In this document: one piece after another, positions 1,138 to 56,070 of the stretch
Layout of the letters: the number at the start of each line of letters is the position of its first letter
Position numbering within the stretch: position 1 is the first letter of the stretch
Virus record (IMG/VR): IMGVR_UViG_3300028558_000016
Span: 278,014-342,013 of that record
From: a virus
Direction: 5' to 3' (one strand)
DNA length: 64,000 nt
Notes under the pieces: generated by a model
Database searches by the model: none
The model's input: only the letters and a program-made list of their open reading frames with translations
Told to the model about the DNA's origin: nothing
Program-made: the position numbers and the translations under genes

Positions 1138-1287
1138 ATGCCAGTAGATGATATAGTTTTCCAAAGCAATCCACCATTCATTTTAGAAGTTCCCGCACAG
1201 ACACCAGGAACAATAAGAGCATTATCGCTTGATGGAGTATTCGATTTTACAAATGCTACTGAAATAATAACGATTCAAATCAGCTAA
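1138..1287 (+). CDS. Small hypothetical protein (49 aa)
   Basis: ATG 1138 to TAA 1285-1287, overlapping the next start as TAATG; no motif recognised. Confidence 0.2.
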   Translation: MPVDDIVFQSNPPFILEVPAQTPGTIRALSLDGVFDFTNATEIITIQIS

Positions 1288-2678: not shown

Positions 2679-2686
2679 ACATATAA

Positions 2687-4924: not shown

Positions 4925-4925
4925 A

Positions 4926-31161: not shown

Positions 31162-32488
31162 TAAAATAAAAGACATACACTCGAGTGATGCCTATGGAAT
31201 TCTGGTAGAGACTGGATGTGGTCTTGCGGTATCTAATGAATTGCTTGAAGTCAGCGGTGCATCTAATACGGTTTATTTTGCTGAATGTCCATACAGCAAG
31301 GAATATCAAACATTCAAGTATGGCGAAACCAATGCGAGAGCGGTTTCAATGGAAAACATAAAGCACATAATGAATTATCATAAAGCTTTAGATAAACCAG
31401 AAAACGTTAACTTCATTTATGCTTCATCCTTTCAAGTAGGAGAACACAACGATAAATCAACTCATGGATGGATAGGTCTTTCATTAAAAGAAGATGACAG
31501 ACGTTATTTCCACATCTCAATACATGAGTCATTAACACGAAAACAATACATCGATAAAATATCTAAGATAGGAATTGACATTTTACATTTTTACATAAAC
31601 AAATCAACTGGTACAAATTTCATACCGAGCAATTGTTGCATTGACATAGTACTTAATGGAAAAGGTGAACAGGTCAATTTAACTGATATGTTTGTTTCTC
31701 TTAGATATGAAGACGATGAAAACTTCTTATGCTTCAAAGAAGGAAAATTAGTTAGAATGGAAGATCTTTTCAGAGATCAAAAGAACATAGTATTATTCAA
31801 GGGAAGCTTTAATCCAATCCATGCCGCTCACATACACACTGCACAATTAGCAAAGGATGAATATGGAATTGAACCTGTGTTTGTTATTAGTTCTTCAGTG
31901 TATCAAAAAGGATGGATAGAACCTGAGGATCTTAAGAACCGAGTGGAAACATTAAACGAACTTGGCTATCCTGTTATAATAACTAAAGATGGTTACTTTA
32001 ACAAGAACACGTCCTATATTAGACGTAAATTCAAACAACCTTTGATATACGTAGTTGGTTCGGATACATTAAACAGAATATTGGAAAGCTCATATAACAT
32101 TTTAAATCCAGAACTTAGCGAGAGATATAATCATTACGTCAATCAATTGATTTCCATGAAGCCTGAGAATGAACTGATAACAGACGAAGAATTGGATGAA
32201 ATAGAAAAAATGGCATTACAACATTATTTAAGAAGATTCAAAGAGGATTTCAAAGATGTAAAATTCTTCGTTGTAAATAGACCAGGGAGCGAATTGCACG
32301 AAGATGCAAAACGAATAGAAGAATTTTATTCAATGGTTGAAGAACATCCTGAGTATTTCCATATAAGCTCAACTAAAATTCGTGCCATGCTTATAGCTGG
32401 AGATTATGAGACAATTAAAAAATTGATACCAGAAAAAATATTTGAAAAGTATATTAACCAAAAAACAAACAACCATGTCAACAACTAA
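31148..32488 (+). CDS. Fusion of a CinA/PncC-like (NMN deamidase-like) domain and NMN/NaMN adenylyltransferase
   Basis: N-terminal domain VETGCGLAVSNELLEVSGASNTVYFAECPYSKEYQ parallels the PncC segment [35 protein letters not shown]. C-terminal domain GSFNPIHAAH is the (H/T)xGH nucleotidyltransferase motif. Confidence 0.55.
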   Translation: MENINKIKDIHSSDAYGILVETGCGLAVSNELLEVSGASNTVYFAECPYSKEYQTFKYGETNARAVSMENIKHIMNYHKALDKPENVNFIYASSFQVGEHNDKSTHGWIGLSLKEDDRRYFHISIHESLTRKQYIDKISKIGIDILHFYINKSTGTNFIPSNCCIDIVLNGKGEQVNLTDMFVSLRYEDDENFLCFKEGKLVRMEDLFRDQKNIVLFKGSFNPIHAAHIHTAQLAKDEYGIEPVFVISSSVYQKGWIEPEDLKNRVETLNELGYPVIITKDGYFNKNTSYIRRKFKQPLIYVVGSDTLNRILESSYNILNPELSERYNHYVNQLISMKPENELITDEELDEIEKMALQHYLRRFKEDFKDVKFFVVNRPGSELHEDAKRIEEFYSMVEEHPEYFHISSTKIRAMLIAGDYETIKKLIPEKIFEKYINQKTNNHVNN

Positions 32489-33144: not shown

Positions 33145-33990
33145 ATGTATAACATAAAATACCCGGTCGCATTCCACCCAGTGGATATGGCCATAACAAG
33201 AATACACGAAGGAAGAATACAAGTTCTCCTTGCGCAAAAAGTAAAAGACACAGAAGGTGGAGCTAACATTGTTAGATTCCCTGGAGGTTTCCTTGATGTG
33301 TGTGACTCGTGTGCTGAAGAAGCAGCATTGAGAGAAGCAATGGAAGAAACAGGAATGAGATTTGGAAACTCTGCTATGGCAGATTATTTCATCGGATACT
33401 TTGCTAAGAAGAAACCATTTACCGATAAGTTGAACAAACTTATAGAATCAAACGGTGATGCAAAGGAAATAACTGAAACCATCAACCAATTGCATGCAAT
33501 CAAAATATCCGATGATGCTTTAGCATGGTTGAGAACAAGAACAACTTACATTGGTTCAACTAAGATTGATGATGCAAGATATGCTGACACAGATCACAAA
33601 GTAATCACAAGCTTTTATGAGCTACATCCAAATCCAAAATTCGATAAGGATGGTGAAGGTCCATTTGATGACATCGCAAGAACAAAATGGTTTTTCCTTT
33701 CAGACATTAAAGAAGAAATCATGCACAAGTCGCATGTTCCATTGTTCAACATGTTATTTGAAAAATACAAAGCAGAGAGACTTGCAGACAACGTGTTTAA
33801 CGCTGCTGAAGAGGTATTCAAATCAACAGAGGAAATGTTCAACACCTTCAAAAAAGAAACTGATGAGATTTTTGATGGAATAAAAAAGAAAATGCCTGAA
33901 TACGAAAAGAAAGTGGATGAAGCAATGCAAGGCATGGGAAAGAAAATGGATAAGTTCTTTAGCGGTTTAGAAGATATTTTAAAATCTTAA
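33145..33990 (+). CDS. Nudix hydrolase with C-terminal helical extension
   Basis: GGFLDVCDSCAEEAALREAMEETGM contains a Nudix-box-like REAMEETGM (REUxEExGU). Confidence 0.6.
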   Translation: MYNIKYPVAFHPVDMAITRIHEGRIQVLLAQKVKDTEGGANIVRFPGGFLDVCDSCAEEAALREAMEETGMRFGNSAMADYFIGYFAKKKPFTDKLNKLIESNGDAKEITETINQLHAIKISDDALAWLRTRTTYIGSTKIDDARYADTDHKVITSFYELHPNPKFDKDGEGPFDDIARTKWFFLSDIKEEIMHKSHVPLFNMLFEKYKAERLADNVFNAAEEVFKSTEEMFNTFKKETDEIFDGIKKKMPEYEKKVDEAMQGMGKKMDKFFSGLEDILKS

Positions 33991-34287: not shown

Positions 34288-36081
34288 ATGAAAAGATCAA
34301 CTAAACATTTCGGAGATTATTCCGATGCGGAGTTAAAAAGCATGAGTCCTGAGCAACTCATTGCTATCATCTTGGAAGGTCAGAACGATGATAACTTCAT
34401 CATCATGACAGACTCTTACAAAATGACTCATCACCTGCTTTATCCTAATGGATTAAGAAGGGTTTACTCATATATGGAACCACGCGGCGGCGAAATGCCT
34501 TACACCGTATTCTTTGGATTGCAGTATTACATCAAAAGGTATCTTGCTGGAAGAAGAATCACCAAAGAGAAAATCGAAGATGCACGTCAAGCAAACATTG
34601 CACACTTTGGATTTGATTGCTTTGATGATACAATGTGGTATCACATATTAAATAAGCACGATGGTAAACTTCCATTGAGAATTAAAGCTATTCCTGAAGG
34701 AACTCCGATCGCTGTTAAGAATATCGTGATGGATATGGAAAACTTAGACCTTGATAATTGTGCAGCATTGACAAACATCACAGAAACATTGTTAATGAAA
34801 ATCTGGGCAACATGTACTGTCGCAGCTTACAATAGAATCATCAAGGAATTAATAACAAAGAATCACGCGATCACTTCAGACCTTCCAGCATTCTTGATTG
34901 ATTACATGCACCATGATTTTGGTTACAGAGGAACTTCATCAGAAGAGACTGCACGCTTAATGGCTGCGGCTGCAATGACAAGTTTTAAAGGAACTGACAC
35001 AATGGGCGGTTTAAGCTTAATCAAGAAATATTATTCTCCTGATGGAGCAACATGGTCTGAATGCATGGCAGGTTTCTCTGTTATTGCGTCTGAACACTCA
35101 GTTGTTTGTTCATACGGTGGAAGACACAAAGAAGCGAAATCATACCTTGACATTATAAACAAGGTTAAGAACCATCCTAAAATTAAGATAGCAAAACCAT
35201 TGAGCGGAGTAATTATTCTATCTTTGGTGTCTGACACTTATAACATCTACAATGTGTCTAAGAAAATTCTTAAACAATTGGAAAAAGAATTTATTGGATG
35301 GACAAACGATAACGGCATTCCAATTAAGATTGTTATTCGTCCTGACTCGGGAGTTCCTGCTAACGTGTTATTTGGATATAACGATGTTGTTAAAGGAATG
35401 GTTGCTGACAAAGATGCTTTAGCAGTAGCACCAATCGACCTTTGCAAAAGAGTTGCAGATGACATGTCGATAACTTTAGAAGAAGGAACAGAGCTTGTGA
35501 CCAAAGGAGTATTTGAAATACTGTTCGATGAATTTGGATCAACAACAAACACTAAAGGTTACAGAGTATTCCATCCACAAATAGGAGTATTACAAGGTGA
35601 TGGCGTTAAGTATACTGTCATCGATGAATTCCATGAGATCATGAAAACGAAAGAATACATGATAGACATCATGATGCTTGTTGTTGGTTCAGGCGGAAAA
35701 AATCTACAGGCTCACGATCGTGATGAACAAAAATGGGCAATCAAAGCAACTGAGGTTGGCATCGATAATGACTCAGTAATGGGTGGTATAGAAACAGTTC
35801 AAATAGAAAAAAATCCAATCACAGATCCTGGAAAGAAATCTAAAAAAGGAGATCTTAAGCTTGGCAAGAAAATGCTTAAGGTAGGCCCTGATTACGATTT
35901 CACAAAAGAATGGATGAACTTTAAAACCTTCCAAGAAGGTGAAGAAGGATTTGATACTGTAACAAACCTTTTAGTTCCTGTATTTGAAATGGGAGAAATC
36001 CTCGTTGAATACGATTTTGAAGAAGTGAGAGCGAACAGTGCGGTAGTATATCCTCAAATTAAAAAAACGGCTTTAGCCTAA
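34288..36081 (+). CDS. nadV: Nicotinamide phosphoribosyltransferase (NadV/NAMPT)
   Basis: FIIMTDSYKMTHHLLYPNGLRRVYSYMEPRGG closely parallels the NAMPT segment [31 protein letters not shown]; 597 aa. Confidence 0.85.
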   Translation: MKRSTKHFGDYSDAELKSMSPEQLIAIILEGQNDDNFIIMTDSYKMTHHLLYPNGLRRVYSYMEPRGGEMPYTVFFGLQYYIKRYLAGRRITKEKIEDARQANIAHFGFDCFDDTMWYHILNKHDGKLPLRIKAIPEGTPIAVKNIVMDMENLDLDNCAALTNITETLLMKIWATCTVAAYNRIIKELITKNHAITSDLPAFLIDYMHHDFGYRGTSSEETARLMAAAAMTSFKGTDTMGGLSLIKKYYSPDGATWSECMAGFSVIASEHSVVCSYGGRHKEAKSYLDIINKVKNHPKIKIAKPLSGVIILSLVSDTYNIYNVSKKILKQLEKEFIGWTNDNGIPIKIVIRPDSGVPANVLFGYNDVVKGMVADKDALAVAPIDLCKRVADDMSITLEEGTELVTKGVFEILFDEFGSTTNTKGYRVFHPQIGVLQGDGVKYTVIDEFHEIMKTKEYMIDIMMLVVGSGGKNLQAHDRDEQKWAIKATEVGIDNDSVMGGIETVQIEKNPITDPGKKSKKGDLKLGKKMLKVGPDYDFTKEWMNFKTFQEGEEGFDTVTNLLVPVFEMGEILVEYDFEEVRANSAVVYPQIKKTALA

Positions 36082-36082
36082 T

Positions 36083-36562
36083 ATGGAAAAACAAGTAAAA
36101 ATATCTCAGTCTGTTGCCATCTTGATTGATGGCAACAACATTGAGATCAGCATACATAAGGATGCAGAGAAAGATAACGTGATGTGTGATTTCGATAATC
36201 TCGTTCCCAAGCTTATTGGCGACAGATCATTAAATCGCTTGGTGTACTTCAGAGAAGGAAAAAGCATCTCGCCTAAATTGGCAGACAGACTCCATAAATT
36301 ATTTTATGGAGTTGTTAAGCCATGCAGGAAGAATGCTGACATTCGTTTAACCATTGAAGCCATACAACTTGCAAACAAAGTGGACACAATAATAATTATG
36401 AGTGGAGATTCTGATTACATTGAGCTTGTTCAACATTTGCAATCACAGGGATTAAGAGTTGAAATAGCCGGAGTCCAATCAAGCACTTCAAAGTCATTGA
36501 TTGAAGCGGCCGATTTCTTCCATCCAATAACTAAAGACGATTGGTTCACATTTAAAAATTAA
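36083..36562 (+). CDS. NYN/LabA-like domain protein (predicted RNase fold)
   Basis: VAILIDGNNIEIS at the N-terminus and IIMSGDSDYIELV...GLRVEIAGV. Confidence 0.6.
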   Translation: MEKQVKISQSVAILIDGNNIEISIHKDAEKDNVMCDFDNLVPKLIGDRSLNRLVYFREGKSISPKLADRLHKLFYGVVKPCRKNADIRLTIEAIQLANKVDTIIIMSGDSDYIELVQHLQSQGLRVEIAGVQSSTSKSLIEAADFFHPITKDDWFTFKN

Positions 36563-38845: not shown

Positions 38846-39348
38846 ATAAGCTCGAATATAGAATGTATGGAATAGTTCCTTACAACATTTCAGAAATACA
38901 AAAAGGAATCCAATTTGGACATGCTGTTGTAGAATACTCGTTGAAGTATTTTAAGAACGAAGACTTTCAACAGTGGGCCAAGAAGCACAAAACATTCATG
39001 GTTATGAATGGAGGAACAACCAATATGGGAGAAGGAACAATTCAAGGAAGACCCGATTGGATGGTTGAAGAACTTAAAGGGTCATTAAATAAATACGCCG
39101 ATTTACTTTCCAAAAATAAAATCAAATGCGCTTATTTCTTTGAGCCAGACTTAAATGATGCTTTAACTGCCGCGGTATTTCTTGCAGATGAAAGAGTTTT
39201 CGACAAGATTAAATATCCTGATTATGTTCCTCTTTCTTTTGATTTAGCAAAAAATGATCCACAACACGAGAAAGAATGGGTCAAATCTATAGGAGGAAAA
39301 CAAAATGTTTTCCTTCGTGAATTCATATCTAAACTAAGATTTGCATGA
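38842..39348 (+). CDS. Hypothetical protein
   Basis: ORF with ATGA junctions on both sides. Confidence 0.4.
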   Translation: MNKLEYRMYGIVPYNISEIQKGIQFGHAVVEYSLKYFKNEDFQQWAKKHKTFMVMNGGTTNMGEGTIQGRPDWMVEELKGSLNKYADLLSKNKIKCAYFFEPDLNDALTAAVFLADERVFDKIKYPDYVPLSFDLAKNDPQHEKEWVKSIGGKQNVFLREFISKLRFA

Positions 39349-40031
39349 AAACGACAGACAAATACGTATTATTTTATACTGAGGTATTTTCTCAGTGGCA
39401 TCCTTCCAATTTTGAAGTAGGAGGTAAAAAATTCTGCACAGCAGAACAATTCATGATGTATTTCAAAGCATTAACGTTCGGTGATCAAGAGATTGCAGAC
39501 AAGATATTAGCAACAAATAGTCCACGTGAACAAAAGAAACTTGGACGCGCTGTTAAAGGATTTGATGCTGTTAAATGGAATGCAATAGCCAAGGAAGTTG
39601 TATTCAAAGGAAACAGAGCTAAGTTTCAACAGAATCCAGAAATGTTCGAACAATTAATGGCAACAGGACACAAAGAACTTGTTGAAGCTTCCCCTTATGA
39701 TACTATATGGGGAATAGGCTTTGATGAAAATGCTCCTGAAGCTCTTGATAAGTCAACATGGAATGGAACAAATTGGCTTGGCGAAGTATTAACAAAGCTT
39801 AGAGATGTTCTTAGAAGAGAACAGACAATTCAAAACATAGTGAAACATGGTGAAGCTGAATTGGAAAAATTTGCCAGGGATTATCCAAATGACATAGGAC
39901 GATTGTATGAAAGCTATAAAAAATTGAAAACACAATCTTGGTCTGAAGATTTTTTAAGAGGATATTTAGGAGCTATAACAGATTTAATTATTATTAAAAA
40001 AGGACATTGGGGAGACTCATTTGTAAAATAA
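39345..40031 (+). CDS. NADAR-domain protein (YbiA-like; NAD/ADP-ribose N-glycosidase family)
   Basis: VLFYTEVFSQWHPSNFEVGGKKFCTAEQFMMYFKA...LGRAVKGFD...KFQQNP...LVEASPYDTIWGIGFDE parallels the E. coli YbiA pattern. Confidence 0.7.
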   Translation: MKTTDKYVLFYTEVFSQWHPSNFEVGGKKFCTAEQFMMYFKALTFGDQEIADKILATNSPREQKKLGRAVKGFDAVKWNAIAKEVVFKGNRAKFQQNPEMFEQLMATGHKELVEASPYDTIWGIGFDENAPEALDKSTWNGTNWLGEVLTKLRDVLRREQTIQNIVKHGEAELEKFARDYPNDIGRLYESYKKLKTQSWSEDFLRGYLGAITDLIIIKKGHWGDSFVK

Positions 40032-40668: not shown

Positions 40669-41592
40669 GTGAAAAGATTCCACGATTATAGCACATTCAA
40701 CGGCCTTGAAAATCTAAAACAGATTGTTGCCAAGAAAGATCCTTCCATGAGCGAAGACCTCATGAAGGCACTATTTCCATTAAGAGATAAGAACATTGGC
40801 AAAACATTGAAGGACATCATAAAGAGATTTGAAAAATCCGCTGAATACGATACACCGAACAAATGGTTCAGTCCAAACAAGTATAACACTTTTATGGAAT
40901 ACTTTCAAAGAGGATTAACCGACAAGAAGAAAGAAGAAATAGAAGCAACCATAGATCAATATCTCATGGTCATGCCTTCTGAATCAAACATTGAATCAAT
41001 AGGAAATTTCTCAGACACTTCATCGATATTAAGATTGAAGAAACCGACTAAAGACGTAGTTAAGGATTTAATGGATTTTGGAATAAGTGATGTGAGCACA
41101 TTAAACTTTATAAGCCTAAAGCTTCTCAAATGTTATTACCACAGGGTGCATTGCCCAGTAAGCGGAACTATACAAAAGATAACATTCATTGGAAGAGAAG
41201 AACCGTTGTTTGGAGACAATTCCCTATGGGTGGTTGAATTCAATTCAGAAGAAGGAAGAATTTACATGCTTGTAGTTGGAGAACTTTCTATACAGGATTT
41301 TAATTTCAACTTCAAAGAAGGAGACAAGGTTAACAAATTTGAAGAGCTCGGAAAATTCAATTGGGGTTCTCAGCTCGTTTTAATATATGCAAAAGATTCA
41401 TTCGTAAGCGAACCGTTGATCATAGAAAAGGAGAAATATTTTGTTGGTGATGGAATATTTAATAAGACAAAAATAGTTCAAGGCGATATTCTTAATTCAA
41501 TGCCAATTGACCAGATAGGAAATGGACAAAGAAACGGAACAATATACGGAGATGATATTTTAAAAGCACCAACAGGAGCAAACATATTTTAA
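40669..41592 (+). CDS. Phosphatidylserine decarboxylase-like protein
   Basis: GTG start. C-terminal LGKFNWGSQLVLIY resembles the PSD self-cleavage motif LGxFxMGSTVIxLF. EYFQRGL resembles the PSD FFxRxL motif. Length 307 aa. Confidence 0.45.
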   Translation: MKRFHDYSTFNGLENLKQIVAKKDPSMSEDLMKALFPLRDKNIGKTLKDIIKRFEKSAEYDTPNKWFSPNKYNTFMEYFQRGLTDKKKEEIEATIDQYLMVMPSESNIESIGNFSDTSSILRLKKPTKDVVKDLMDFGISDVSTLNFISLKLLKCYYHRVHCPVSGTIQKITFIGREEPLFGDNSLWVVEFNSEEGRIYMLVVGELSIQDFNFNFKEGDKVNKFEELGKFNWGSQLVLIYAKDSFVSEPLIIEKEKYFVGDGIFNKTKIVQGDILNSMPIDQIGNGQRNGTIYGDDILKAPTGANIF

Positions 41593-42235: not shown

Positions 42236-42566
42236 CATAGTTAAATGGCTTTATGCAATATATGTGTAGCTGTTCTACCTTCATCAGATGCAAGGACAAA
42301 AATTTAGGTGCGGTTATCTCCTTGCTAAACTATCGCATAGGTCAGGATTGCATTGAGAAATGCAATTGTATGGACAGACTTTAGGTATGATCATAATTTT
42401 AGAAACAAAAAAGGTATATAAGAATATAACAAGTCATGAAAACAACATTGTCATTAAGTCTAAGTTTGTCGCTATCCTTATCAGGATGGACTAACCGGGC
42501 TATGTGATAATTTCTGACTAATAAGAAATTTGAATGAACCCGGTGGAAACATCGGGTTTTTTATTT
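42236..42566 (+). ncRNA. Candidate small RNA between a promoter copy and an intrinsic terminator, upstream of the tRNA cluster
   Basis: About 330 nt with no ORF of 60 aa or more. Internal perfect hairpin ATTGCATTgagaAATGCAAT. Ends in the terminator aACCCGGTGgaaaCATCGGGTtttttt. Confidence 0.35.
42537..42566 (+). terminator. Rho-independent terminator
   Basis: ACCCGGTG gaaa CATCGGGT followed by tttttt. Confidence 0.6.
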
Positions 42567-42575
42567 TATACACAT

Positions 42576-42658
42576 GCCCATGTGGCGGAATTGGTAGACG
42601 CGCCGGTCTTAGGAACCGGTGCCTTTAAGGCGTGCAGGTTCGAGTCCTGTCATGGGTA
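42576..42658 (+). tRNA. tRNA-Leu (anticodon TAG), class II
   Basis: GCCCATG acceptor, AATTGGTAG D-loop, anticodon loop CTTAGGA, long variable arm, GTTCGAGT T-loop; no encoded CCA. Confidence 0.8.
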
Positions 42659-42739
42659 CAACGTGGTGAAAGTACATTCAGACTGTACCATCAGATTTTA
42701 GCTACTGATGAAGCATTTGTGGTGATGCTGCTGCGAATT

Positions 42740-42826
42740 GGTGAGATGTCCGAGTGGTTTAAGGAGCAACCCTGGAAAGGTTGTATACGGGAAACCGTAT
42801 CGTGGGTTCGAATCCCACTCTCACCG
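42740..42826 (+). tRNA. tRNA-Ser (anticodon GGA), class II
   Basis: GGTGAGA acceptor, 3-bp D-stem with GAGTGGTTTAA loop, anticodon loop CTGGAAA, long variable arm, discriminator G. Confidence 0.8.
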
Positions 42827-42836
42827 CAAATAAAAT

Positions 42837-42920
42837 GGAAGGTTGGTAGAGCGGTCTATTGCACCAGTCTTGAAAACTGGAGATCCTACGGGGTCCGTGA
42901 GTTCGAATCTCACACCTTCC
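42837..42920 (+). tRNA. tRNA-Ser (anticodon TGA), class II
   Basis: GGAAGGT acceptor, D-arm GTA/GAGCGGTCTAT/TGC, anticodon stem CCAGT with loop CTTGAAA; very similar to E. coli tRNA-Ser(UGA). Confidence 0.8.
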
Positions 42921-42926
42921 GCAATT

Positions 42927-43014
42927 GGAGAGCTACTCAAGTTGGTTAAGAGGCGCGTTTGCTAAACGTGTAGGACGAGAAATCGTTGGGTGGGTTCGAA
43001 CCCCACGCTCTCCG
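42927..43014 (+). tRNA. tRNA-Ser (anticodon GCT), class II
   Basis: GGAGAGC acceptor, anticodon loop TTGCTAA, long variable arm, discriminator G. Confidence 0.75.
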
Positions 43015-43025
43015 CAGAAAATTCT

Positions 43026-43108
43026 GCCCCCATGGTGGAATTGGTAGACACGCAGGACTTAAAATCCTGTGCCCTTAGGGCGTACGAGTTCGAGTCTCGT
43101 TGGGGGTA
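43026..43108 (+). tRNA. tRNA-Leu (anticodon TAA), class II
   Basis: GCCCCCA acceptor, anticodon stem CAGGA/TCCTG with loop CTTAAAA, long variable arm. Confidence 0.8.
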
Positions 43109-43115
43109 CATAAAT

Positions 43116-43197
43116 GCCGAGTTGGCGGAATTGGTAGACGCGCTGGTCTCAAACACCAGTGACGAAAGTCGTGTGGGTTCGAGTCCCACACTCGGTA
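43116..43197 (+). tRNA. tRNA-Leu (anticodon CAA), class II
   Basis: GCCGAGT acceptor, anticodon stem CTGGT/ACCAG with loop CTCAAAC, long variable arm. Confidence 0.8.
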
Positions 43198-43213
43198 CAA
43201 GAAGAAGAATAAA

Positions 43214-44677
43214 ATGGAAAATGATAAAAAATATTGCTTGGTGATGTTTCCTTATCCGTCTGGAGATGGATTGCACATTGGACATTGCTACAACTACTTG
43301 ATAGTTGATAGCTATTGTCGTTGGATGAAGAGAAAAGGAATTGAAGTGTTTCAACCATTTGGTTATGACGCTTTCGGTTTGCCTGCGGAGAATTATGCGA
43401 TCAAGCATAACAGAGATCCAAAAGAAGTCACCTATGAAAACATAGAAAATTTCAGAAGGCAGATGAAGAGATTGGATACTAATTATGAAGAGAAGTTAAT
43501 TACAGCTGATCCATCTTATTTCAAATGGACACAATGGTTGTTCACAAAGATGTTGGAGAAGGGAATTGCTTACAAGAAATTTCATCCAGTAAACTTTTGT
43601 CCATCTTGCGCAACAGTGATTGCCAATGAGCAGGTGAAGGAAGGAAAATGTGAGAGATGCAATTCAGTTGTTGAGATGAAAAACTTGAATCAATGGTTCT
43701 TCAGAATAACAGACTACACAGATAGGTTGATCAAGAACTTGCAATGGTTGGATTATCCCGAGAAAACCAAGAAGCAACAATTACATTGGTTGGAGAAGAT
43801 GAAAGAAAACAAGATCGATTGGTGTGTGTCAAGACAGAGAAAATGGGGATGTCCAATTCCTGTTGAAGGAGAGGAAGATACTTTGGACACATTTGTTGAC
43901 AGCTCATTTTACTACTTGAGATTCTTGACGGATTCTGAAGATGAATTCTTGCCAAGAGAAAAATATAAGCAGGTTGATTTGTACGTCGGAGGAAATGAAC
44001 ATGCTTGCATGCATTTGATTTATGCAAGATTTGTGAACATGTTCTTGTATGACTTGGGAATTGTTGAACAAGAAGAACCGTTCAAGAAGTTGATTCATCA
44101 GGGAATGATCAAGATGAATGGAACAAAGATGTCCAAGTCTATCGGCAATGTTGTTAATCCGGATGGGTATGATCCAGATGAATTGAGATTTTACTTGATG
44201 TTCATTGGACATTATTTTGATGGCGGAGATTGGAACGATCAAAACATTGTTGGCATAAGAAAATTCTTTGCACGATGGGATAAGCTTACTTTTAGAGAAG
44301 CAAAGGAAGGAATTGAATCTATGGATTTGACTGAATTTGAAAACCAGATCGATGGTTATGTGAAAGCTTTCAAGTTCAATAAGGTTGTTAGTTCATTCAT
44401 GGAATTTTACAACAATAATAGCAGCAGAAACTTTGACAAGGAAACCAGATTGAAGTTGAGAAGAATGTTGGAGTGTTTTGCGCCAACAAGATTTTCTAAA
44501 GATGAAAGGCCTCCAGTTGGCATGGATGAATTAAGAAGAAAATCCAATGAGTTGTCTGAGAACGTAAACAAGATTGAAGTAATGGTTAATAAAATTTTTA
44601 AAGATGTTGAACAAAAAGAAAATATCACCGGAATATCCGAGAATACCTCACTTGATGGGGAAGTCAAATCTGTATGA
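43214..44677 (+). CDS. leuS: Leucyl-tRNA synthetase-like class I aaRS catalytic core, apparently lacking the CP1 editing and C-terminal domains
   Basis: PYPSGDGLHIGHCYNY (HIGH) and MNGTKMSKSIGN (KMSKS). Only about 265 aa lie between the two motifs and 487 aa in total, against about 860 aa in bacterial LeuRS. Zinc knuckle CPSC...CERC present. Confidence 0.8.
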   Translation: MENDKKYCLVMFPYPSGDGLHIGHCYNYLIVDSYCRWMKRKGIEVFQPFGYDAFGLPAENYAIKHNRDPKEVTYENIENFRRQMKRLDTNYEEKLITADPSYFKWTQWLFTKMLEKGIAYKKFHPVNFCPSCATVIANEQVKEGKCERCNSVVEMKNLNQWFFRITDYTDRLIKNLQWLDYPEKTKKQQLHWLEKMKENKIDWCVSRQRKWGCPIPVEGEEDTLDTFVDSSFYYLRFLTDSEDEFLPREKYKQVDLYVGGNEHACMHLIYARFVNMFLYDLGIVEQEEPFKKLIHQGMIKMNGTKMSKSIGNVVNPDGYDPDELRFYLMFIGHYFDGGDWNDQNIVGIRKFFARWDKLTFREAKEGIESMDLTEFENQIDGYVKAFKFNKVVSSFMEFYNNNSSRNFDKETRLKLRRMLECFAPTRFSKDERPPVGMDELRRKSNELSENVNKIEVMVNKIFKDVEQKENITGISENTSLDGEVKSV

Positions 44678-45308
44678 CGATGACATTGAGATCAATGTTG
44701 AGTTAGGGTTTGATGCCTTTGTACAAGAGAAGGTTGATGGAGCAAACTGTGGAATCAGTTGGTTCGATGGACCCATTCTCAGAAACAGAACCCATGTGTT
44801 AAGAAAGGGATTTGAAAGAGACACTCCAGCAAAGAAACAATTTGTTCCAGCTTGGAATTGGTTGCATGAAAGAGAAGATGACTTGAAGGAGATGATGAAG
44901 AAGTGGAATGGACAGATAACTGTTTATGGAGAGTGGATGCTTGCAAAACATTCTATTGGATATGAGAAGCTTCCAGATTATTTTCTTGCTTATGACATTT
45001 GGTCGTGTGAAGAAAACAAGTTTGTTTCTCCGAAGGAATGCAAGGAACTTTTGAATGGGACTGGCATAAGATGGATCGAAGCAGAAAGAATAAGCATTCA
45101 ATCGTTCTCTGATTTGAAGTCAGTTCTTGATGTTCCCTCTAAGTACAGAGATGGAATTAAAGAAGGAATAGTTATCAAGAAAACTGACGAAGACGATAAG
45201 TGGATAGAGAAGACTTTCAAGGTTGTTAGAAAAGATTTTGAAAGGGCTGATGAAAGCTGGAATAAGAAAAAGCTTGAAAAGAATAAGCTGATAAAGAGGA
45301 GTGCCTGA
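44655..45308 (+). CDS. Minimal ATP-dependent polynucleotide (probably RNA) ligase, nucleotidyltransferase domain only
   Basis: Motif I EKVDGAN (KxDG), motif IV EGIVIKK, motif V KVVRKD. The track ORF starts at 44604 inside leuS; 44655 is the internal ATG. Confidence 0.5.
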   Translation: MGKSNLYDDDIEINVELGFDAFVQEKVDGANCGISWFDGPILRNRTHVLRKGFERDTPAKKQFVPAWNWLHEREDDLKEMMKKWNGQITVYGEWMLAKHSIGYEKLPDYFLAYDIWSCEENKFVSPKECKELLNGTGIRWIEAERISIQSFSDLKSVLDVPSKYRDGIKEGIVIKKTDEDDKWIEKTFKVVRKDFERADESWNKKKLEKNKLIKRSA

Positions 45309-45380
45309 GTGGCTGAAAGGACCGGTCTCGAAAACCGGCACACCCAAAAGGTGTCGTGAGTTCGAATCTCACCTCCTCTG
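45295..45380 (+). tRNA. tRNA-Ser (anticodon CGA), class II
   Basis: AGAGGAG acceptor (A1-U72), D-arm CCT/GAGTGGCTGAA/AGG, anticodon loop CTCGAAA, long variable arm, discriminator G; overlaps the last 14 nt of the ligase ORF. Confidence 0.75.
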
Positions 45381-45419
45381 CATTTTTTAATTTGATGATT
45401 TTTTTGTAAATTCACTATC

Positions 45420-45725
45420 ATGAATGATGAAGATAAAAAAATAAAGGGATCATTGTTTTTCTTGTACATCGGCAAGCTTAAAGAATTGGGTTTGATAGAA
45501 GGTGGCGCAGGAGATTTGACCATGAAAGGTTTTGACATTGCCATTGATGCCTATAACAGTGGACATAGATTGTCAGATGAGGAGATTAGTAATTTTCTCG
45601 AAGCCGCTCCTGGAATGGACGATGACGACACAATAGAGGCAGCATTTGGAATGATAGCCAAGATGCAAGAAATTGGATTTGATGGAATGAAAGAATTGGT
45701 TGAACGAGTAAAGAAAACATTATGA
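45420..45725 (+). CDS. Hypothetical acidic protein
   Basis: ORF with ATGA junction to Sir2. Confidence 0.4.
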   Translation: MNDEDKKIKGSLFFLYIGKLKELGLIEGGAGDLTMKGFDIAIDAYNSGHRLSDEEISNFLEAAPGMDDDDTIEAAFGMIAKMQEIGFDGMKELVERVKKTL

Positions 45726-46432
45726 AAAAGAAATTAGTGGTGTTTAGCGGTGCAGGAGTTTCTGCTGAGAGCGGAATTCCTACATTCAGAGATTCAAATG
45801 GTCTTTGGGAAAACCATAAGATGGAAGATGTTGCTACTCCAGAAGGATGGGAGAAAAACAGAGAGCTTGTTCTCAACTTCTACAATCTTATGAGAACGAA
45901 ACTCAAAGCAGTTGTTCCGAATAAAGCTCACAATATAATTGCAGAGCTTGAAGAACATTTTGAAGTTACAGTCATCACACAAAACATAGATGACTTGCAT
46001 GAGAGAAGCGGCTCAAAGAAGGTCATACATCTTCATGGAGAATTAATGAAGAGCAGAAGCACATTTAATCCAAATCTAAAATACGAGTGTACTGGAAATA
46101 TAAACATAGGTGACAAATGTGAGAAAGGTTCTCAATTGAGGCCTGACATAGTTTGGTTTCATGAAAATGTTTATCACCTTGACACTGCGGCTGAATTGGT
46201 AGAACAGTGCGATATTCTTCTTGTTGTTGGAACTTCATTAAATGTTTGGCCTGCAGCAGGATTGTTATATGTGACGAAACCGGAAACTGAAATATATTGC
46301 ATTGATCCAAAAACAGTTGTTGGAAGTGATATTCAAGTTACTCACATAAAGAAGAAAGCGAGTGAAGGGATGGAGAAATTTAAAAAGATTATTCTCGAGA
46401 AAAAAGATAAGAAAGAAAATTGCTGTTTATAA
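45722..46432 (+). CDS. Sir2-family NAD-dependent protein deacylase / ADP-ribosyltransferase (sirtuin, CobB-like)
   Basis: FSGAGVSAESGIPTFR, TQNIDDLHERSG, catalytic His in IHLHGEL, and VVGTS are canonical sirtuin motifs. Confidence 0.8.
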   Translation: MKKKLVVFSGAGVSAESGIPTFRDSNGLWENHKMEDVATPEGWEKNRELVLNFYNLMRTKLKAVVPNKAHNIIAELEEHFEVTVITQNIDDLHERSGSKKVIHLHGELMKSRSTFNPNLKYECTGNINIGDKCEKGSQLRPDIVWFHENVYHLDTAAELVEQCDILLVVGTSLNVWPAAGLLYVTKPETEIYCIDPKTVVGSDIQVTHIKKKASEGMEKFKKIILEKKDKKENCCL

Positions 46433-46436
46433 TAAT

Positions 46437-46518
46437 GCCCAGGTGTTGGAATTGGTAGACAAGCACGGTTGAGGGCCGTGTGCAGTAATGCGTAGGGGTT
46501 CGAGTCCCCTTCTGGGTA
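46437..46518 (+). tRNA. tRNA-Leu (anticodon GAG), class II
   Basis: GCCCAGG acceptor, anticodon stem CACGG/CCGTG with loop TTGAGGG, long variable arm; the next ORF starts 2 nt after its 3' end. Confidence 0.75.
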
Positions 46519-46519
46519 C

Positions 46520-48481: not shown

Positions 48482-49225
48482 TTGTTCTCTGTGATAGAGA
48501 TAAAATGTATATTAAAATACGATCCTGTTCCATTATCTGGAAAAGCAGAAACCATGTGCAAACCTTGGTGGATGATCGCAACATGCGAAGGAGATCTCAC
48601 TGAATATTATGCATGGCTTCTTAAAAAACGAACAGGATTAATTCTCCAACGCCCTGCATGGGGCGCACATATCTCAGTCATAAGAGGAGAAGAACCACCC
48701 AACAAAGAATTATGGAAAAAATACCAGGACAAAGAAGTCACTTTGCTCTATGATCCAAACGTCAGAACAAATGGAGATCATTGGTGGATGAGAGTCCATT
48801 GCAACGAACTTCTTGACATAAGAGAAGAATTAGGTCTTCCAAGATTTGGAGCATTAACTTTACACCTCACGTTAGGAAGACCAATCCCAAGACACGAAGA
48901 AGCATCAGATTATTTCCATACAGTTTTTAAATCATTCGCTCCATCGGCGCCAATAAGACCATACATGACACAAGAAGAAGCTTTAAAGAATTTGTCTTTG
49001 CCTCCAATGGAAGTAAAGCATAAAGAATTAAAAACACCTGAACATTCAGACTCTATGTTCAGAAAGGAATGTCCAAACTGTGAGACTGGATTATTGATGA
49101 TGAAAAGAAATCAGTCAACGCTCGCTCTTGAAAAAGATGATAATTGCACTTATTGTGGAAGACGATTCACTTACACTGACATAAAAGAAAACTCAGTAAT
49201 ATTAGAATATAATGAAAAAGCTTGA
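48482..49225 (+). CDS. 2H-superfamily phosphoesterase (LigT/CPDase-like) with C-terminal zinc ribbon
   Basis: Two H-x-(S/T) motifs (AHISVIRG and LHLTLGRP) plus C-terminal CPNC...CTYCG. Confidence 0.5.
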   Translation: MFSVIEIKCILKYDPVPLSGKAETMCKPWWMIATCEGDLTEYYAWLLKKRTGLILQRPAWGAHISVIRGEEPPNKELWKKYQDKEVTLLYDPNVRTNGDHWWMRVHCNELLDIREELGLPRFGALTLHLTLGRPIPRHEEASDYFHTVFKSFAPSAPIRPYMTQEEALKNLSLPPMEVKHKELKTPEHSDSMFRKECPNCETGLLMMKRNQSTLALEKDDNCTYCGRRFTYTDIKENSVILEYNEKA

Positions 49226-49587: not shown

Positions 49588-50535
49588 ATGAAAGAAATAA
49601 TATTACCGGTAGGACTTCCTGCAGCAGGAAAATCCACAATAGTAAATGATTACGTCAGCCAGGGGTTTGCTAAACTTTCGAGAGATGAAATTGGAGGAGG
49701 TCTTGAAGTAGACGGAAAAGTAAATACAAAACTCAAGGATTGGATCCGAATGGGCAAGGAACAAATAATAATGGATGCTACTTACATGACTAAGGAAGTT
49801 AGGAAGCATGTTATAGACATTGCGAAGAAGAATGGATATAAAGTAACATGCGTTCACATTGCAACATCAATAGAAGATTCTCAATTTAATGCAGTTTCGA
49901 GAATGATCAACAGGCATGGAAAACTATTTCAACACGCAGACGATTATACCAAGGCAAAAGATCCTAACATGTTTCCAGTTGCTGCCTTATACAAAGCGAA
50001 TAAAATAATCGAAAAGCCAACCATGTCAGAAGGATTCGACGAGGTTAAAATAGTTCCTTTCAAAAGGAAATTAAACGGCTACACAAACAAAGCAATATTA
50101 TTTGATTATGATGGAACACTAAGACAGACTAAAAATGCCGATTCATTATATCCAACAGATCCAAGCGACATTGAAATTCTTCCTGGGAGAACTGAAAAGA
50201 TCAATGAATTGAAAAAAGAAGGTTACATCATACTCGGTGTTTCAAATCAAAGTGGTGTTGCTAAAGGAGTATTGACTTACGAAATGGCCGATAAGTGTTT
50301 CAAGAAAACAAATGAGCTTTTAGGTGTTGACATCGATTACAGATTTTGTTCTCACAAGGTTCCACCTATCACATGTTATTGCAGAAAACCAGGAGTTGGA
50401 TTTGGGGTTGAGTTCATCGAGAAATATAAATTGGATCCATCACAATGTATCATGGTTGGAGATATGAAATCCGATGAGACCTTCGCAAAGAGATGTGGTT
50501 TTAAATTTGTTCACGTAGATAAATTCTTTAAATGA
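49588..50535 (+). CDS. pnk: Polynucleotide 5'-kinase / 3'-phosphatase (T4 Pnk-like)
   Basis: N-terminal P-loop VGLPAAGKST and C-terminal HAD motif ILFDYDGTL (DxDGT); same domain order as T4 Pnk. Confidence 0.7.
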   Translation: MKEIILPVGLPAAGKSTIVNDYVSQGFAKLSRDEIGGGLEVDGKVNTKLKDWIRMGKEQIIMDATYMTKEVRKHVIDIAKKNGYKVTCVHIATSIEDSQFNAVSRMINRHGKLFQHADDYTKAKDPNMFPVAALYKANKIIEKPTMSEGFDEVKIVPFKRKLNGYTNKAILFDYDGTLRQTKNADSLYPTDPSDIEILPGRTEKINELKKEGYIILGVSNQSGVAKGVLTYEMADKCFKKTNELLGVDIDYRFCSHKVPPITCYCRKPGVGFGVEFIEKYKLDPSQCIMVGDMKSDETFAKRCGFKFVHVDKFFK

Positions 50536-50693: not shown

Positions 50694-51044
50694 ATGACAG
50701 AAGTTTTAGACAAATACGTGAAGTTCCTATGGGAACGTTTCATGGCAGACATGGATGTGCTAACGAATGTTTGGATGTACATTCCGCTTTTAATACCATT
50801 CATCTTCTACATGATATTCTTTGTCATCAAATGGTGGATCCTTCTTTTTCCAATAACCCTGCCTATAAGCATATTGAAAGGATTCTTCAGTGTAAAAATA
50901 AGAAATCAAAATGGAGTTTCCACTAAAAGTGAAATATTAAAAGAGATGAGCGATGACCTTGAAGATGTGGGTGTTCACCCAGACAAAAGTTACAAGGTCA
51001 TCATGGAATGGAAGAAGAAATTCAGGATAGCTCGAAAAGATTAA
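50694..51044 (+). CDS. Membrane protein
   Basis: Two long hydrophobic helices; preferred over the overlapping ORF 50630..50926. Confidence 0.4.
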   Translation: MTEVLDKYVKFLWERFMADMDVLTNVWMYIPLLIPFIFYMIFFVIKWWILLFPITLPISILKGFFSVKIRNQNGVSTKSEILKEMSDDLEDVGVHPDKSYKVIMEWKKKFRIARKD

Positions 51045-51523
51045 AGCTTCTTTGTTATGACATGGTCTTCTATGTCCTCAAAGTTATCGTTGAACTTAAT
51101 TCTTTTCTTCTTAAGATATTCCTTGACAGATCCTATTCGTGTAAATCCCTCTCGGTAATAAAAACTGAGAGGTTTTCCTTCTTTATTTACGTATGAATTT
51201 ATTTTCTTGCATCCGGCTTCCTTAGCAATCGAACACAGAAATTTCATAACTTCTTTTCCTTCTCCTTTATTTCTGTGTTGTGGAAGAATACCGAGCCAAC
51301 CGAGCCAAAGCTCTTTTGTGTCAAAATCGAGAGAATATAAACCACATACTCCTATGGTTTCTTTCTTATCATTCTTGATCAACCAAACCTCCCAAAATTT
51401 TCCATCATCCACACATTTGCACCACATCTTCATAGTTTCTTTGAAGGACTCTCCAAAGTCAGCCATAAGTCCTGTAGTCAAACATTTGTACTGTCTGATA
51501 TTTCTTGACTGAATAAATTTCAT
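51041..51523 (-). CDS. GNAT-family N-acetyltransferase
   Basis: WLGWLGILPQHRNKGEGKEVM is the Q/RxxGxG/A acetyl-CoA motif. Confidence 0.6.
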   Translation of the reverse strand: MKFIQSRNIRQYKCLTTGLMADFGESFKETMKMWCKCVDDGKFWEVWLIKNDKKETIGVCGLYSLDFDTKELWLGWLGILPQHRNKGEGKEVMKFLCSIAKEAGCKKINSYVNKEGKPLSFYYREGFTRIGSVKEYLKKKRIKFNDNFEDIEDHVITKKL

Positions 51524-51525
51524 TG

Positions 51526-52266
51526 TTAACTTTGTTTAAAGTACCTAAATAGATGCGCAGACATAACATAGGTAATAGCAAGTCCGATTCCGATAATGGT
51601 GAAAGACTTATCTATTCCTGCGTCGCCATTAACAAATATATTAAAATCGTACAAACCGTGATAAAAAGTTGCCGCACAAATACCAGCAAAAGTATGACAC
51701 ATCATCCTGAAACGTGGGTGAATTGATGATAGCATGTTCTTAGGCGAATCGTTGTCAATTCTGCCGAGGGCTACGAAGTATCCGAGCATCAAACCACAAA
51801 TCATGTGAACTAAGACTGAACTGAAAGATCTGATAAGAAGAACATCGCCCCCATAGATCTGGGCGTAAAGAATATTTTCAGAAACAGCAAAACCACAAGA
51901 AATAGACATCGCATAAAACATTATTGATGAAGGGTGATCAACCATCTTTTTGTTTCTGTACCAATCAGTGAGTTTGAACATCGAGAATTTGCTCATCTCT
52001 TCAAGAGCACCAACCTTGACGAATGCCGTCGCAAAAAGCGCAATCATCATGTTCTTGCTCATTGGTTCATCCCAATTTGGGAACATGTAGTGAACTGCAT
52101 TTACGAGTATCGTTGATAGAACTCCCATGCAAAAATAAAGTGATGCGGTTCTCCATCTAATTGTAAATGGTGGTGCTGTGATGTAAACTATTATAGAGTA
52201 AATCAAAGCTGGAAGGAACGTGAAAATAAATGAGATCACGTTGTTGTCGTCAAACATTGAATGCAT
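51526..52266 (-). CDS. PrsW-like intramembrane metalloprotease
   Basis: ALEEMSKF (EExxK), GFAVSENILY (FxxxEN) and HGLYDFN (HxxxD/N) lie on predicted TM helices. Confidence 0.5.
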   Translation of the reverse strand: MHSMFDDNNVISFIFTFLPALIYSIIVYITAPPFTIRWRTASLYFCMGVLSTILVNAVHYMFPNWDEPMSKNMMIALFATAFVKVGALEEMSKFSMFKLTDWYRNKKMVDHPSSIMFYAMSISCGFAVSENILYAQIYGGDVLLIRSFSSVLVHMICGLMLGYFVALGRIDNDSPKNMLSSIHPRFRMMCHTFAGICAATFYHGLYDFNIFVNGDAGIDKSFTIIGIGLAITYVMSAHLFRYFKQS

Positions 52267-55389: not shown

Positions 55390-56070
55390 ATGATACAGTA
55401 TAATGAGTTCAGATACATTTTTCCACCACGTGCGGAAAATGCTCTTTCACCTGATGCGTTGAAAGATTACGATAACGGAAAATATATTGCCCAACCAAAA
55501 CTTGATGGCGATTGCATGTTGATATTCACAAATGGAATAGAGACACGCATTATGGATCGTCACAAAAAAGAATTCTTGAAGAACATCAAGATGACTCCAA
55601 CACTTCAAAAGCTTCACAGAGAAACTGACAATGGAACAAAAAATAAATGGATGATCCTTGTTGGTGAGCACATGATCAAATCAAAAAAGAATGCCGAAGG
55701 TAAAACATGGAATGAGAAGTATGTTATTTTTGACATCATTGCTTTTGATGGAATTCAGTTAGTAGGCAAAACATTTCAGGAGAGACAAGAACTTCTCGAT
55801 AAGCTTTTTGGAAAAGAAGAAGTTGCATTGACAAAAACTGGAACATATAAGGATAAATTCCTTTATGCAACGGAAATTGAAGACGTGTTTCGCGTTAAAT
55901 CATTCCGTGATTGTTTTTCTGCTCTTTGGAGCGATTTGACAAAGATTGACATGTACGAAGGTCTCGTTATAAAAAGAGCCGATGCAAAACTTGAAAATGG
56001 AAGCACACAAAAGAACAACATAAATTCACAATTAAAATTCAGAAAGGCCACTTTAAATTATCCACATTAA
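55390..56070 (+). CDS. Minimal ATP-dependent polynucleotide ligase (nucleotidyltransferase domain only)
   Basis: Motif I AQPKLDGDCML (KxDG) and motif IV YEGLVIKRADAK. Confidence 0.5.
   Translation: MIQYNEFRYIFPPRAENALSPDALKDYDNGKYIAQPKLDGDCMLIFTNGIETRIMDRHKKEFLKNIKMTPTLQKLHRETDNGTKNKWMILVGEHMIKSKKNAEGKTWNEKYVIFDIIAFDGIQLVGKTFQERQELLDKLFGKEEVALTKTGTYKDKFLYATEIEDVFRVKSFRDCFSALWSDLTKIDMYEGLVIKRADAKLENGSTQKNNINSQLKFRKATLNYPH

Follow-up and report, generated by a model that had tools for sequence, protein, structure and literature searches.

Huge phages can encode up to 67 tRNAs and up to 15 aminoacyl-tRNA synthetases (aaRSs), together with CCA-adding enzymes and tRNA ligation genes, and Al-Shayeb et al. 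(2020) proposed that such phages aminoacylate tRNA variants of their own and rejoin tRNAs that host defences have cleaved (PMC7162821). Phage tRNAs can also evade tRNA-targeting defences (PMC10264068, PMC11555353). Here, we describe a tRNA island in a 64,000-nucleotide stretch of the IMG/VR virus record IMGVR_UViG_3300028558_000016 (positions 278,014 to 342,013, hereafter 'the window'), in which eight tRNA genes, four for Leu and four for Ser, flank a gene related to that of leucyl-tRNA synthetase (LeuRS). We interpret the locus, with about an even chance of being right, as a cassette, equipped with its own Leu-charging enzyme and with a tRNA repair and maturation kit, through which a ~480 kb megaphage makes its Leu/Ser decoding independent of the host.

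The locus has the features of a huge-phage translation island, with a genome above 200 kb, eight tRNAs, a LeuRS-like gene, a CCA-adding-type nucleotidyltransferase, an RNA ligase and a polynucleotide kinase-phosphatase (Pnkp). As in the described islands (PMC7162821), tRNAs distinct from host-type sets are combined with a synthetase, a CCA-adding-type enzyme and RNA ligation genes in a megaphage-sized genome. Whereas typical islands cover all amino acids, the visible complement here, over at least 83 kb, consists of complete Leu and Ser sets and is conserved in the lineage, and the synthetase is a truncated LeuRS. With the phage tRNAs that serve as counter-defence or host-independence devices (PMC10264068, PMC11555353, PMC11464382, PMC11726456), the island would share the replacement of cleaved, depleted or under-expressed host tRNAs. 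Those devices, however, are either single tRNAs (Lys, Tyr, Leu-UAA) or broad sets with altered anticodon loops, in contrast to the two complete isoacceptor families, canonical anticodon loops and accompanying synthetase seen here. No description of a lineage-conserved visible complement restricted to two complete families was found in the searchable literature. The island is a lineage-conserved variant of the huge-phage translation islands, and it refines the established picture rather than overturning it.

The tRNA genes and the codons they serve

In the whole window, ARAGORN found exactly eight tRNA genes, which all lie on the plus strand and have the anticodons given in an earlier note made from the sequence alone. 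All are class II tRNAs without an encoded CCA. Six of them form an array of 623 nt, and the start of the LeuRS-like open reading frame (ORF; position 43214) lies 15–17 nt downstream:

42536–42559, plus strand: terminator-like G+C hairpin (10-pair stem, 5 GC pairs) followed by the T-run TTTATTTTAT, 16 nt upstream of the first tRNA gene
42576–42659, plus strand: tRNA-Leu(UAG), class II, 84 nt, G1.U72, A73, no CCA
42740–42827, plus strand: tRNA-Ser(GGA), class II, 88 nt, G73, no CCA
42837–42922, plus strand: tRNA-Ser(UGA), class II, 86 nt, G73, no CCA
42927–43015, plus strand: tRNA-Ser(GCU), class II, 89 nt, G73, no CCA (Rfam 47.6 bits)
43026–43109, plus strand: tRNA-Leu(UAA), class II, 84 nt, G1.U72, A73, no CCA
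43116–43198, plus strand: tRNA-Leu(CAA), class II, 83 nt, G1.U72, A73, no CCA
45295–45381, plus strand: tRNA-Ser(CGA), class II, 87 nt, A1-U72, G73, no CCA
46437–46519, plus strand: tRNA-Leu(GAG), class II, 83 nt, G1.U72, A73, no CCA (Rfam 42.8 bits)

The hairpin marks the upstream boundary of the array, and a promoter scan returned sigma-70-like sites no more frequently than in shuffled sequence. Rfam model RF00005 recovered six of the eight tRNAs at default filters and all eight at laxer filters, with 42.8–58.9 bits against a gathering score of 29, and a sensitive Rfam scan of all 64 kb gave no additional tRNAs or other RNA families. Sub-threshold matches to RF04351 (a plastid psbI-rps4 3′UTR element) on the minus strand, at 42784–42826 and 42962–43014 and antisense to two tRNA-Ser genes, can almost certainly be put down to tRNA-derived sequence in the model rather than to a real element.

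The class II assignment is based on variable regions of 12–18 nt in canonical cloverleaves for all eight tRNAs, with arm stems drawn by ARAGORN for six, and the anticodon loops are canonical. The identity rules of E. coli pair discriminator A73 with Leu and G73 with Ser, and the window tRNAs follow them throughout (4/4 and 4/4). By standard wobble rules, the set reads all 12 codons, six for Leu and six for Ser. The chance of obtaining Leu or Ser in eight out of eight cases is 6e-8 for draws of distinct anticodons from a bacterial repertoire of 43 species, and 2e-4 under the Leu-enriched frequencies found around the same synthetase in other phages. The earlier note was thus borne out on the architecture, the missing CCA, the array with its adjoining LeuRS-like gene and the completeness of both decoding sets; tRNAs of other types in the same island, which it had named as the finding that would speak against it, were absent from the window scan.

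Each of the eight genes ends in N73-C-A followed by a non-CCA base (e.g. 42658–42661 and 43197–43200). Among 287 unique tRNAs of phage loci (L001–L069, the L numbers denoting fetched loci), the base after the discriminator is C in 272, commonly followed by AA (CAA in 120), and a true CCA is present in only 40; the N73-C-type 3′ trailer is a lineage-wide signature. A further trait is the G1.U72 wobble pair that tops the acceptor stem of all four tRNA-Leu in the window. In the same collection, 46/80 Leu, 8/20 Val, 5/13 Arg, 5/10 Glu and 3/11 Ile tRNAs have it, but no Ser, Phe, Asn, Thr, Asp, Lys, Ala or Gly tRNA does, so that the pair is almost confined to substrates of class I synthetases. The pair was considered as a Leu-specific identity mark for the phage LeuRS and rejected, given its occurrence in the Val, Arg, Glu and Ile tRNAs of these phages.

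The phage is AT-rich (37% G+C), and Leu (7.9%) and Ser (7.1%) make up ordinary shares of the encoded residues. One explanation of the set is codon-usage compensation, in which an AT-rich phage prefers Leu and Ser codons that are poorly decoded by a more G+C-rich host. The preferred codons CTT, TTA and TTG (78% of Leu) and TCA and TCT (58% of Ser) are indeed all covered, and an insufficient supply of host Leu-UAA tRNA blocks a cyanophage (PMC11726456). However, tRNA-Ser(CGA), -Leu(GAG), -Ser(GGA) and -Leu(UAG) serve codons that are rarely used (6–10% each; CTA, CTG and CTC account for 6–9% of Leu each and TCG for 6% of Ser), while no tRNA in the 83 kb inspected matches the classic problem codons of AT-rich genomes, AGA (63% of Arg) and ATA (39% of Ile). 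The presence of rare-codon isoacceptors and the lack of AGA and ATA tRNAs make the set look like a replacement of whole families rather than a supplement, and we consider codon-usage compensation unlikely.

The earlier note had also suggested that the tRNAs supply Ser-rich fibre genes. Three consecutive genes at 1287–6950 consist mostly of (G-X-S)n triplet repeats and match collagen-like tail-fibre PHROGs; they contain 17–23% Ser each (19.5% overall) and hold 28% of the Ser codons of the window. Yet the fibres are also 21.5% Gly and 11% Thr with only 4.0% Leu, and the island provides no tRNA-Gly or tRNA-Thr but four tRNA-Leu. Relatives of the island (L001, L021) likewise keep one tRNA-Ser but several tRNA-Leu, and the Gly/Leu mismatch effectively refutes the suggestion. 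Additional giant collagen-like ORFs (979–1209 aa) are found just past the right end of the window (L066:11823–21245).

Relatives of the island in other huge phages

The window represents ~13% of a 482,059 bp contig (ENA ERZ27245401 k141_1209612), at roughly 244.7–308.7 kb. The contig was matched through ORF 1287–2678, whereas exact look-ups of the LeuRS ORF and of the ORF at the left edge gave no record. Its collagen-like (G-X-S)n fibre genes, together with numerous auxiliary genes of phage type, lead us to assign the window to a megaphage. Megablast with the island gave no match among GenBank phages. Flanks of 8.7 kb to the left (L068) and 10 kb to the right (L066, a near-identical Logan contig) were added, both devoid of tRNA genes, which brings the tRNA census to ~83 kb of the 482,059 bp, from −52 to +29 kb around the synthetase gene. 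That only Leu and Ser tRNAs are present is established locally, for these ~83 kb, and not genome-wide.

IMG/VR, GTDB genomes and JGI metagenomes were the sources of ~140 related loci (±10 kb each), which were supplemented with exact-protein look-ups. A search of IMG/VR with a single protein gave no relatives, and an alignment query recovered them. The labels of metagenome-assembled genomes into which phage contigs had been binned were heterogeneous (Deltaproteobacteria, Gammaproteobacteria, Bacteroidota, Flavobacterium) and were not used for host assignment. Five independent genomes of the lineage (L004/5/6, L130, L001/2, L021/L173) have Leu and Ser tRNAs only in the ~10 kb around the synthetase. 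They have 22 genes (L004/5/6; LeuRS 81%), 24 genes (L130; LeuRS 83%), 13 genes (L001/2; 438 kb contig) and 4 genes (L021/L173) in common with the window. The exclusivity asserted in the earlier note therefore stands for the 83 kb and for the five lineage genomes, and is not claimed for the 482 kb genome.

Around the shortened LeuRS (mini-LeuRS, see below) of the ~140 loci, Leu accounts for 31/62 tRNAs (50%) within 1 kb, compared with 16% at 3–10 kb, and in the complete 635 kb relative LR745206.1 for 5/59 (8.5%). In huge phages, the mini-LeuRS usually adjoins clusters of several tRNA-Leu isoacceptors.

The main rival explanation is that the window merely holds the Leu/Ser block, next to LeuRS, of an ordinary larger complement, with nothing specific to Leu and Ser or to class II tRNAs. 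It is favoured by the fraction of the 482,059 bp contig examined, by the increase in tRNA number with genome size in huge phages (PMC7162821), and by LR745206.1, whose 59 tRNAs for all 20 amino acids are arranged in five blocks ~20 kb apart, 55 of them in an 80 kb region around its mini-LeuRS. Moreover, tRNAs for Val, Ile, Met, Thr, Asn, Gln, Phe, Glu, Asp and Pro are present in many loci that have this synthetase, these mixed sets being found where only the synthetase is in common with the window. On the other hand, the span of LR745206.1 equivalent to that inspected here would hold ~45 mixed tRNAs, whereas here none was found besides Leu and Ser, and the Leu+Ser-only neighbourhood recurs in the five lineage genomes. 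LR745206.1 is also a weak guide: with 18 of the 90 window proteins in common and no synteny, it can serve as a family-level reference only and not as a proxy for the tRNA layout. We regard a larger ordinary complement as doubtful, though as a possibility to be taken seriously.

The Leu+Ser-only island is a conserved trait of the lineage, and has been kept despite gene turnover inside the array. The array of the window is headed by a canonical 84-nt Leu(tag), whereas the orthologous Leu(tag) of L004 and L130 is arm-less, 74 nt long and located between Leu(taa) and Leu(caa). Reduction has gone furthest in L001, which retains Ser(tga), Leu(taa) and Leu(tag), all U34 isoacceptors. Between window and L004, Leu(GAG) differs in the variable-arm stem (GCA..TGC versus GTC..GAC) and in an acceptor pair (A-T versus G-C), and the Ser(UGA) acceptor reads GGAAGGT/ACCTTCC versus GGAAGAG/CTCTTCC. 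Such compensated changes in acceptor and variable-arm stems of orthologues indicate functional tRNAs, in a comparison that has a small sample and high divergence, and in which the Ser(UGA) evidence is the visible stem changes.

Arm-less tRNA-Leu genes are absent from the window, and 26 distinct ones are found beside the mini-LeuRS of relatives (L004:9794–9867, L130:9896–9969, L001:9874–9949, L021:11606–11682/12140–12215/12315–12391, L010:8803–9177, L013:7949–8654 and others). Their length is 74–78 nt and their variable region 4–8 nt; they have A73, and most have G1.U72. When compared after masking of the anticodon and removal of the variable region, 22/26 are closest to a long class II tRNA-Leu, and the short genes resemble tRNA-Leu genes whose variable arm has been lost. 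To our knowledge, arm-less tRNA-Leu is unusual outside animal mitochondria, and no description of such genes beside a mini-LeuRS was found in the searchable literature.

A more specific reading, also raised in the earlier note, is that a nuclease of host or phage recognizes the long variable arm and that the phage replaces exactly the class II tRNAs. This would fit the class II architecture of 8/8 tRNAs, the repair kit described below, and the clustering of Leu, Ser and Tyr tRNAs in more distant clades (L022, L154); a precedent for a single tRNA is Retron-Eco7, whose PtuAB degrades tRNA-Tyr and is countered by T5 with its own tRNA-Tyr (PMC11555353). However, tRNA-Tyr is missing from the window and from all five lineage relatives, and the arm-less tRNA-Leu of L004, L130, L001 and L021, although readable as escape, leave a set that is no longer defined by class II architecture. 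The window tRNAs, in turn, keep canonical long arms and would be equally vulnerable. We know of no nuclease with specificity for class II tRNAs, and consider the reading very improbable. Insulation from tRNA damage is still plausible in general terms, given the repair kit, the pattern of whole-family replacement and published precedents (PMC10264068, PMC11555353, PMC11464382, PMC11726456); it is the class II-specific part of the idea that is unsupported, in view of the missing Tyr and the arm-less Leu tRNAs.

In the more distant clade, L154 (JACCDT011973773.1, 362 kb contig) and L022 have Leu, Ser and Tyr tRNAs beside the mini-LeuRS, plus Phe and one Gln. Class II tRNAs tend to group in part of the mini-LeuRS family, and the same amino acids also have in common the U-first row of the codon table. 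Relatives also contain odd tRNA predictions, with four-base anticodons, suppressor-type anticodons (tta, cta) or overlong versions of normally short tRNAs (L013:19917–20002, L017:9185–9257, L020:17962–18051, L065:12351–12423, L083:9540–9620, L016:3522–3594, and many Cys, Asn, Met, Thr, His and Arg tRNAs of 84–91 nt). Introns, suppression of frameshifts or stops, or alternative coding in those phages may account for them.

A domain-minimal LeuRS

The synthetase gene follows directly on the six-gene array:

43214–44677, plus strand: domain-minimal LeuRS, 487 aa; class I synthetase with Rossmann core, HIGH, KMSKS and CxxC..CxxC zinc module kept

The best model for the protein is leuS_bact (TIGR00396) with 401.6 bits, which falls short of the cut-off of 548.4 bits for full-length equivalogs, while ValRS, MetRS and IleRS models reach at most 150 bits. 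The catalytic signatures FPYPSGDGLHIGH and KMSKS are both present, and H21, G23, H24, K305, M306, K308 and the four zinc cysteines are invariant in 18 homologues. All top PDB matches are LeuRSs, the best being that of Mycoplasma mobile (3ziu; E 1.8e-92 by sequence, TM 0.79 and 34% identity by structure, using an AlphaFold (AF2) model with a pLDDT of 83). Normalized to full-length LeuRS, the TM-score is 0.43–0.49. Judged from these matches, the phage gene is of bacterial LeuRS descent, with intact catalytic motifs.

Alignment to the LeuRS of T. thermophilus reveals what has been lost. Residues 4–201 of the phage protein correspond to 33–232, and residues 200–217 to 419–436, so that residues ~233–418, the CP1 editing insertion, are missing, in keeping with the lack of a match to the CP1 editing domain PF13603. 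Residues 213–299 correspond to 487–577 and the KMSKS region comes next, which leaves out the insertion at ~577–634; the leucine-specific domain is missing. The final aligned piece (378–402) corresponds to 731–755 of 878, so that neither the distal anticodon-binding helices nor the C-terminal tRNA-binding domain has a counterpart. Conservation within the family ends at about residue 425, and the last ~60 of the 487 residues are a clade-specific, low-confidence tail.

M. mobile LeuRS, which we take to be naturally devoid of the CP1 editing domain, resembles the phage protein in this respect and in its HIGH motif, KMSKS motif and catalytic core. The phage protein is, however, ~150–200 residues shorter, and the alignment stops at about residue 522 of 637; unlike the M. 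mobile enzyme, it has neither the distal anticodon-binding helices nor the C-terminal tRNA-binding domain.

The mini-LeuRS family is very large (410–454 residues, on contigs of up to 438–608 kb) and is not exclusive to phages, since cultured Microvirga genomes carry it. The Microvirga proteins are ~410–425 aa long and 62–64% identical to the phage protein (L085:9986–11263 from Microvirga sp. CF3016 on a 360 kb contig, L086, L088, L089, L092, L096). No tRNA gene lies within 10 kb of these copies, and the neighbours encode LysR regulators, MFS and EamA transporters, nitroreductase/reductases, a luciferase-like monooxygenase and GNAT. As a clue to function these neighbourhoods were uninformative, consisting of ordinary chromosomal genes.

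Other additional LeuRSs suggest caution. Archaeal LeuRS-I and halobacterial LeuRS2 are extra copies with disrupted or divergent editing or C-terminal domains, and show weak or absent aminoacylation, yet bind tRNA-Leu or make Leu-AMP (PMC9437257). By this precedent, the phage mini-LeuRS may not be a simple charging enzyme. The archaeal proteins differ in being full-length, archaeal-type and cellular, whereas the phage/Microvirga family is a ~410-aa bacterial-type core and the phage members are tightly linked to tRNA-Leu gene clusters. No description of the mini-LeuRS family or of its pairing with tRNA-Leu clusters was found in the searchable literature. Of the three readings in the earlier note, descent, motifs and linkage give most support to that of a phage with its own synthetase, though for Leu only; a rewiring of Ser charging finds no counterpart, as neither SerRS nor any other synthetase is encoded in the window.

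RNA repair genes and a possible decoding cassette

The island and its surroundings encode several proteins with predicted roles in RNA repair or maturation:

29315–30472, plus strand: class II nucleotidyltransferase, CCA-adding type (CCA tRNA nucleotidyltransferase and PcnB models, both below curated cut-offs)
36083–36562, plus strand: NYN-domain (PIN-like) ribonuclease homologue, a candidate phage RNase
36869–37501, plus strand: RlaP-type Pol-beta nucleotidyltransferase, RNA-ligase-associated, RNA repair (role per PMC7824862)
44604–45308, plus strand: RNA ligase, Rnl2/Rnl5-type nucleotidyltransferase (PF09414, E 3e-27; KxDG motif EKVDGAN)
45420–45725, plus strand: 101-aa ORF between tRNA-Ser(CGA) and the Sir2 gene, without family match or homologue in any fetched locus
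45722–46432, plus strand: Sir2-family NAD-dependent deacylase homologue
48482–49225, plus strand: 2H phosphoesterase with C-terminal zinc ribbon (H-x-S/T motifs GAHISVI and TLHLTLG; weak 2H-SAK match)
49588–50535, plus strand: Pnkp, with N-terminal P-loop kinase and C-terminal HAD 3′-phosphatase

The RNA ligase gene is embedded in the island, overlapping the tail of the LeuRS gene by 74 nt at its start and tRNA-Ser(CGA) by 14 nt at its end, and the genes for the 2H phosphoesterase, Pnkp, RlaP and the CCA-adding-type nucleotidyltransferase are all located within 14 kb. The last of these is probably a CCA-adding enzyme, as needed to mature CCA-less tRNAs. The combination of enzymes matches tRNA repair and maturation sets catalogued for jumbo phages (Iyer et al. 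2021, PMC7824862). The Pnkp has its domains in T4 Pnkp-like order (AAA_33 kinase, residues 5–98; PNK3P/HAD-IIIA phosphatase, residues 168–311), and together with an ATP-dependent RNA ligase near phage tRNAs it recalls the healing and sealing of T4, where Pnkp and RNA ligase act against PrrC. The anticodon-loop repair ligase of T4 is Rnl1, whereas the window ligase is Rnl2/Rnl5-like (PF09414) and embedded in the tRNA array; PF09511, which we take to be the Rnl1 family, was not among the family matches listed for it.

Several of these genes recur in relatives. The ligase directly follows LeuRS also in L004/5/6, and the Sir2 gene is there again located between LeuRS and tRNA-Leu(GAG). Homologues of the 2H phosphoesterase are found near the mini-LeuRS in L004, L001, L015 and L065, and the Pnkp of L004 is 85% identical. 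The ligase of L004 (11337–12035; also L005 and L006) is 80% identical to the window copy and is broken by a stop codon and a scrambled ~25-residue stretch, with the YGEW segment gone, reflecting either gene decay or an assembly error common to the three Logan contigs. A second small nucleotidyltransferase of the ATP-dependent ligase/mRNA-capping superfamily (226 aa, 55390–56070), with homologues near the mini-LeuRS in L021 (57%) and L024 (38%), may be a further RNA or DNA ligase.

Among the other neighbours, NAD/ADP-ribose genes are dense (25340–26788, 31097–32488, 33145–33990, 34288–36081, 39345–40031, 45722–46432), comprising a PARP-like ADP-ribosyltransferase, an NMNAT-like cytidylyltransferase-fold protein, a Nudix hydrolase, NAMPT, a NADAR domain protein and Sir2; together they resemble a module for NAD salvage and ADP-ribosylation conflict, located next to the RNA repair genes. 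Just upstream of the array is a gene for a phosphatidylserine decarboxylase homologue (PF02666, E 2.4e-17; 40669–41592), which is kept in L004/L005 and belongs to lipid metabolism, an unusual function for a phage gene. A GNAT acetyltransferase gene (51041–51523, minus strand) adjoins that of a PrsW-like protease (51526–52266), an arrangement kept in L004 and found near the mini-LeuRS in L001, and GNAT also flanks the mini-LeuRS of Microvirga (L085:11886–12362).

The host-independent Leu/Ser decoding cassette would operate as follows. The tRNA array would be transcribed by the phage during infection, and the CCA-less precursors would be trimmed and receive their CCA from the phage nucleotidyltransferase. 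Charging would fall to the phage mini-LeuRS for tRNA-Leu, possibly alongside host LeuRS, and to host SerRS for tRNA-Ser, while broken tRNAs would be healed and resealed by the 2H phosphoesterase, Pnkp, RlaP and ligase. The presumed purpose is to free the decoding of both six-codon families from a host tRNA pool that is lost or limiting through tRNA-targeting defences, phage-induced host shut-off or down-regulation of host tRNAs.

Several observations weigh against such a cassette. tRNA islands elsewhere in the genome, of which 83 of 482 kb was seen, would make it one block of a general complement, and the canonical anticodon loops have no obvious escape mutations. With no SerRS in the window, the synthetase does not explain the Ser set. 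About half of the phage loci with a mini-LeuRS gene have no tRNA within 10 kb, and cultured Microvirga carry the gene alone in an ordinary chromosomal context. E. coli LeuRS requires its C-terminal domain for aminoacylation; given the loss of this domain, the tRNA-less loci and the stand-alone Microvirga copies, tRNA charging by the mini-LeuRS is to be regarded as unproven.

A bolder version would hold that the lineage has Leu and Ser tRNAs only throughout its genomes, with private decoding around a minimal LeuRS that is devoid of editing and of the usual tRNA-binding domains and is evolving towards arm-less tRNA-Leu. The result would be a streamlined and possibly orthogonal pair, selected by the selective inactivation of host class II tRNAs; we consider this quite unlikely.

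If the cassette truly frees Leu and Ser decoding from the host, certain tRNA families of an uncultured phage–host system would be under selective pressure, which could take the form of cleavage, depletion or down-regulation. The more transferable result is the mini-LeuRS, a ~410-residue core that is abundant in huge phages, occurs also in Microvirga and is linked to tRNA-Leu sets, with Microvirga as a culturable source for biochemistry. Should the protein be inactive in charging, it would represent a new aaRS-like paralogue with a tRNA-linked role. If active, it would be the smallest natural LeuRS and part of a compact synthetase/tRNA pair for studies of aaRS evolution and for genetic-code engineering.

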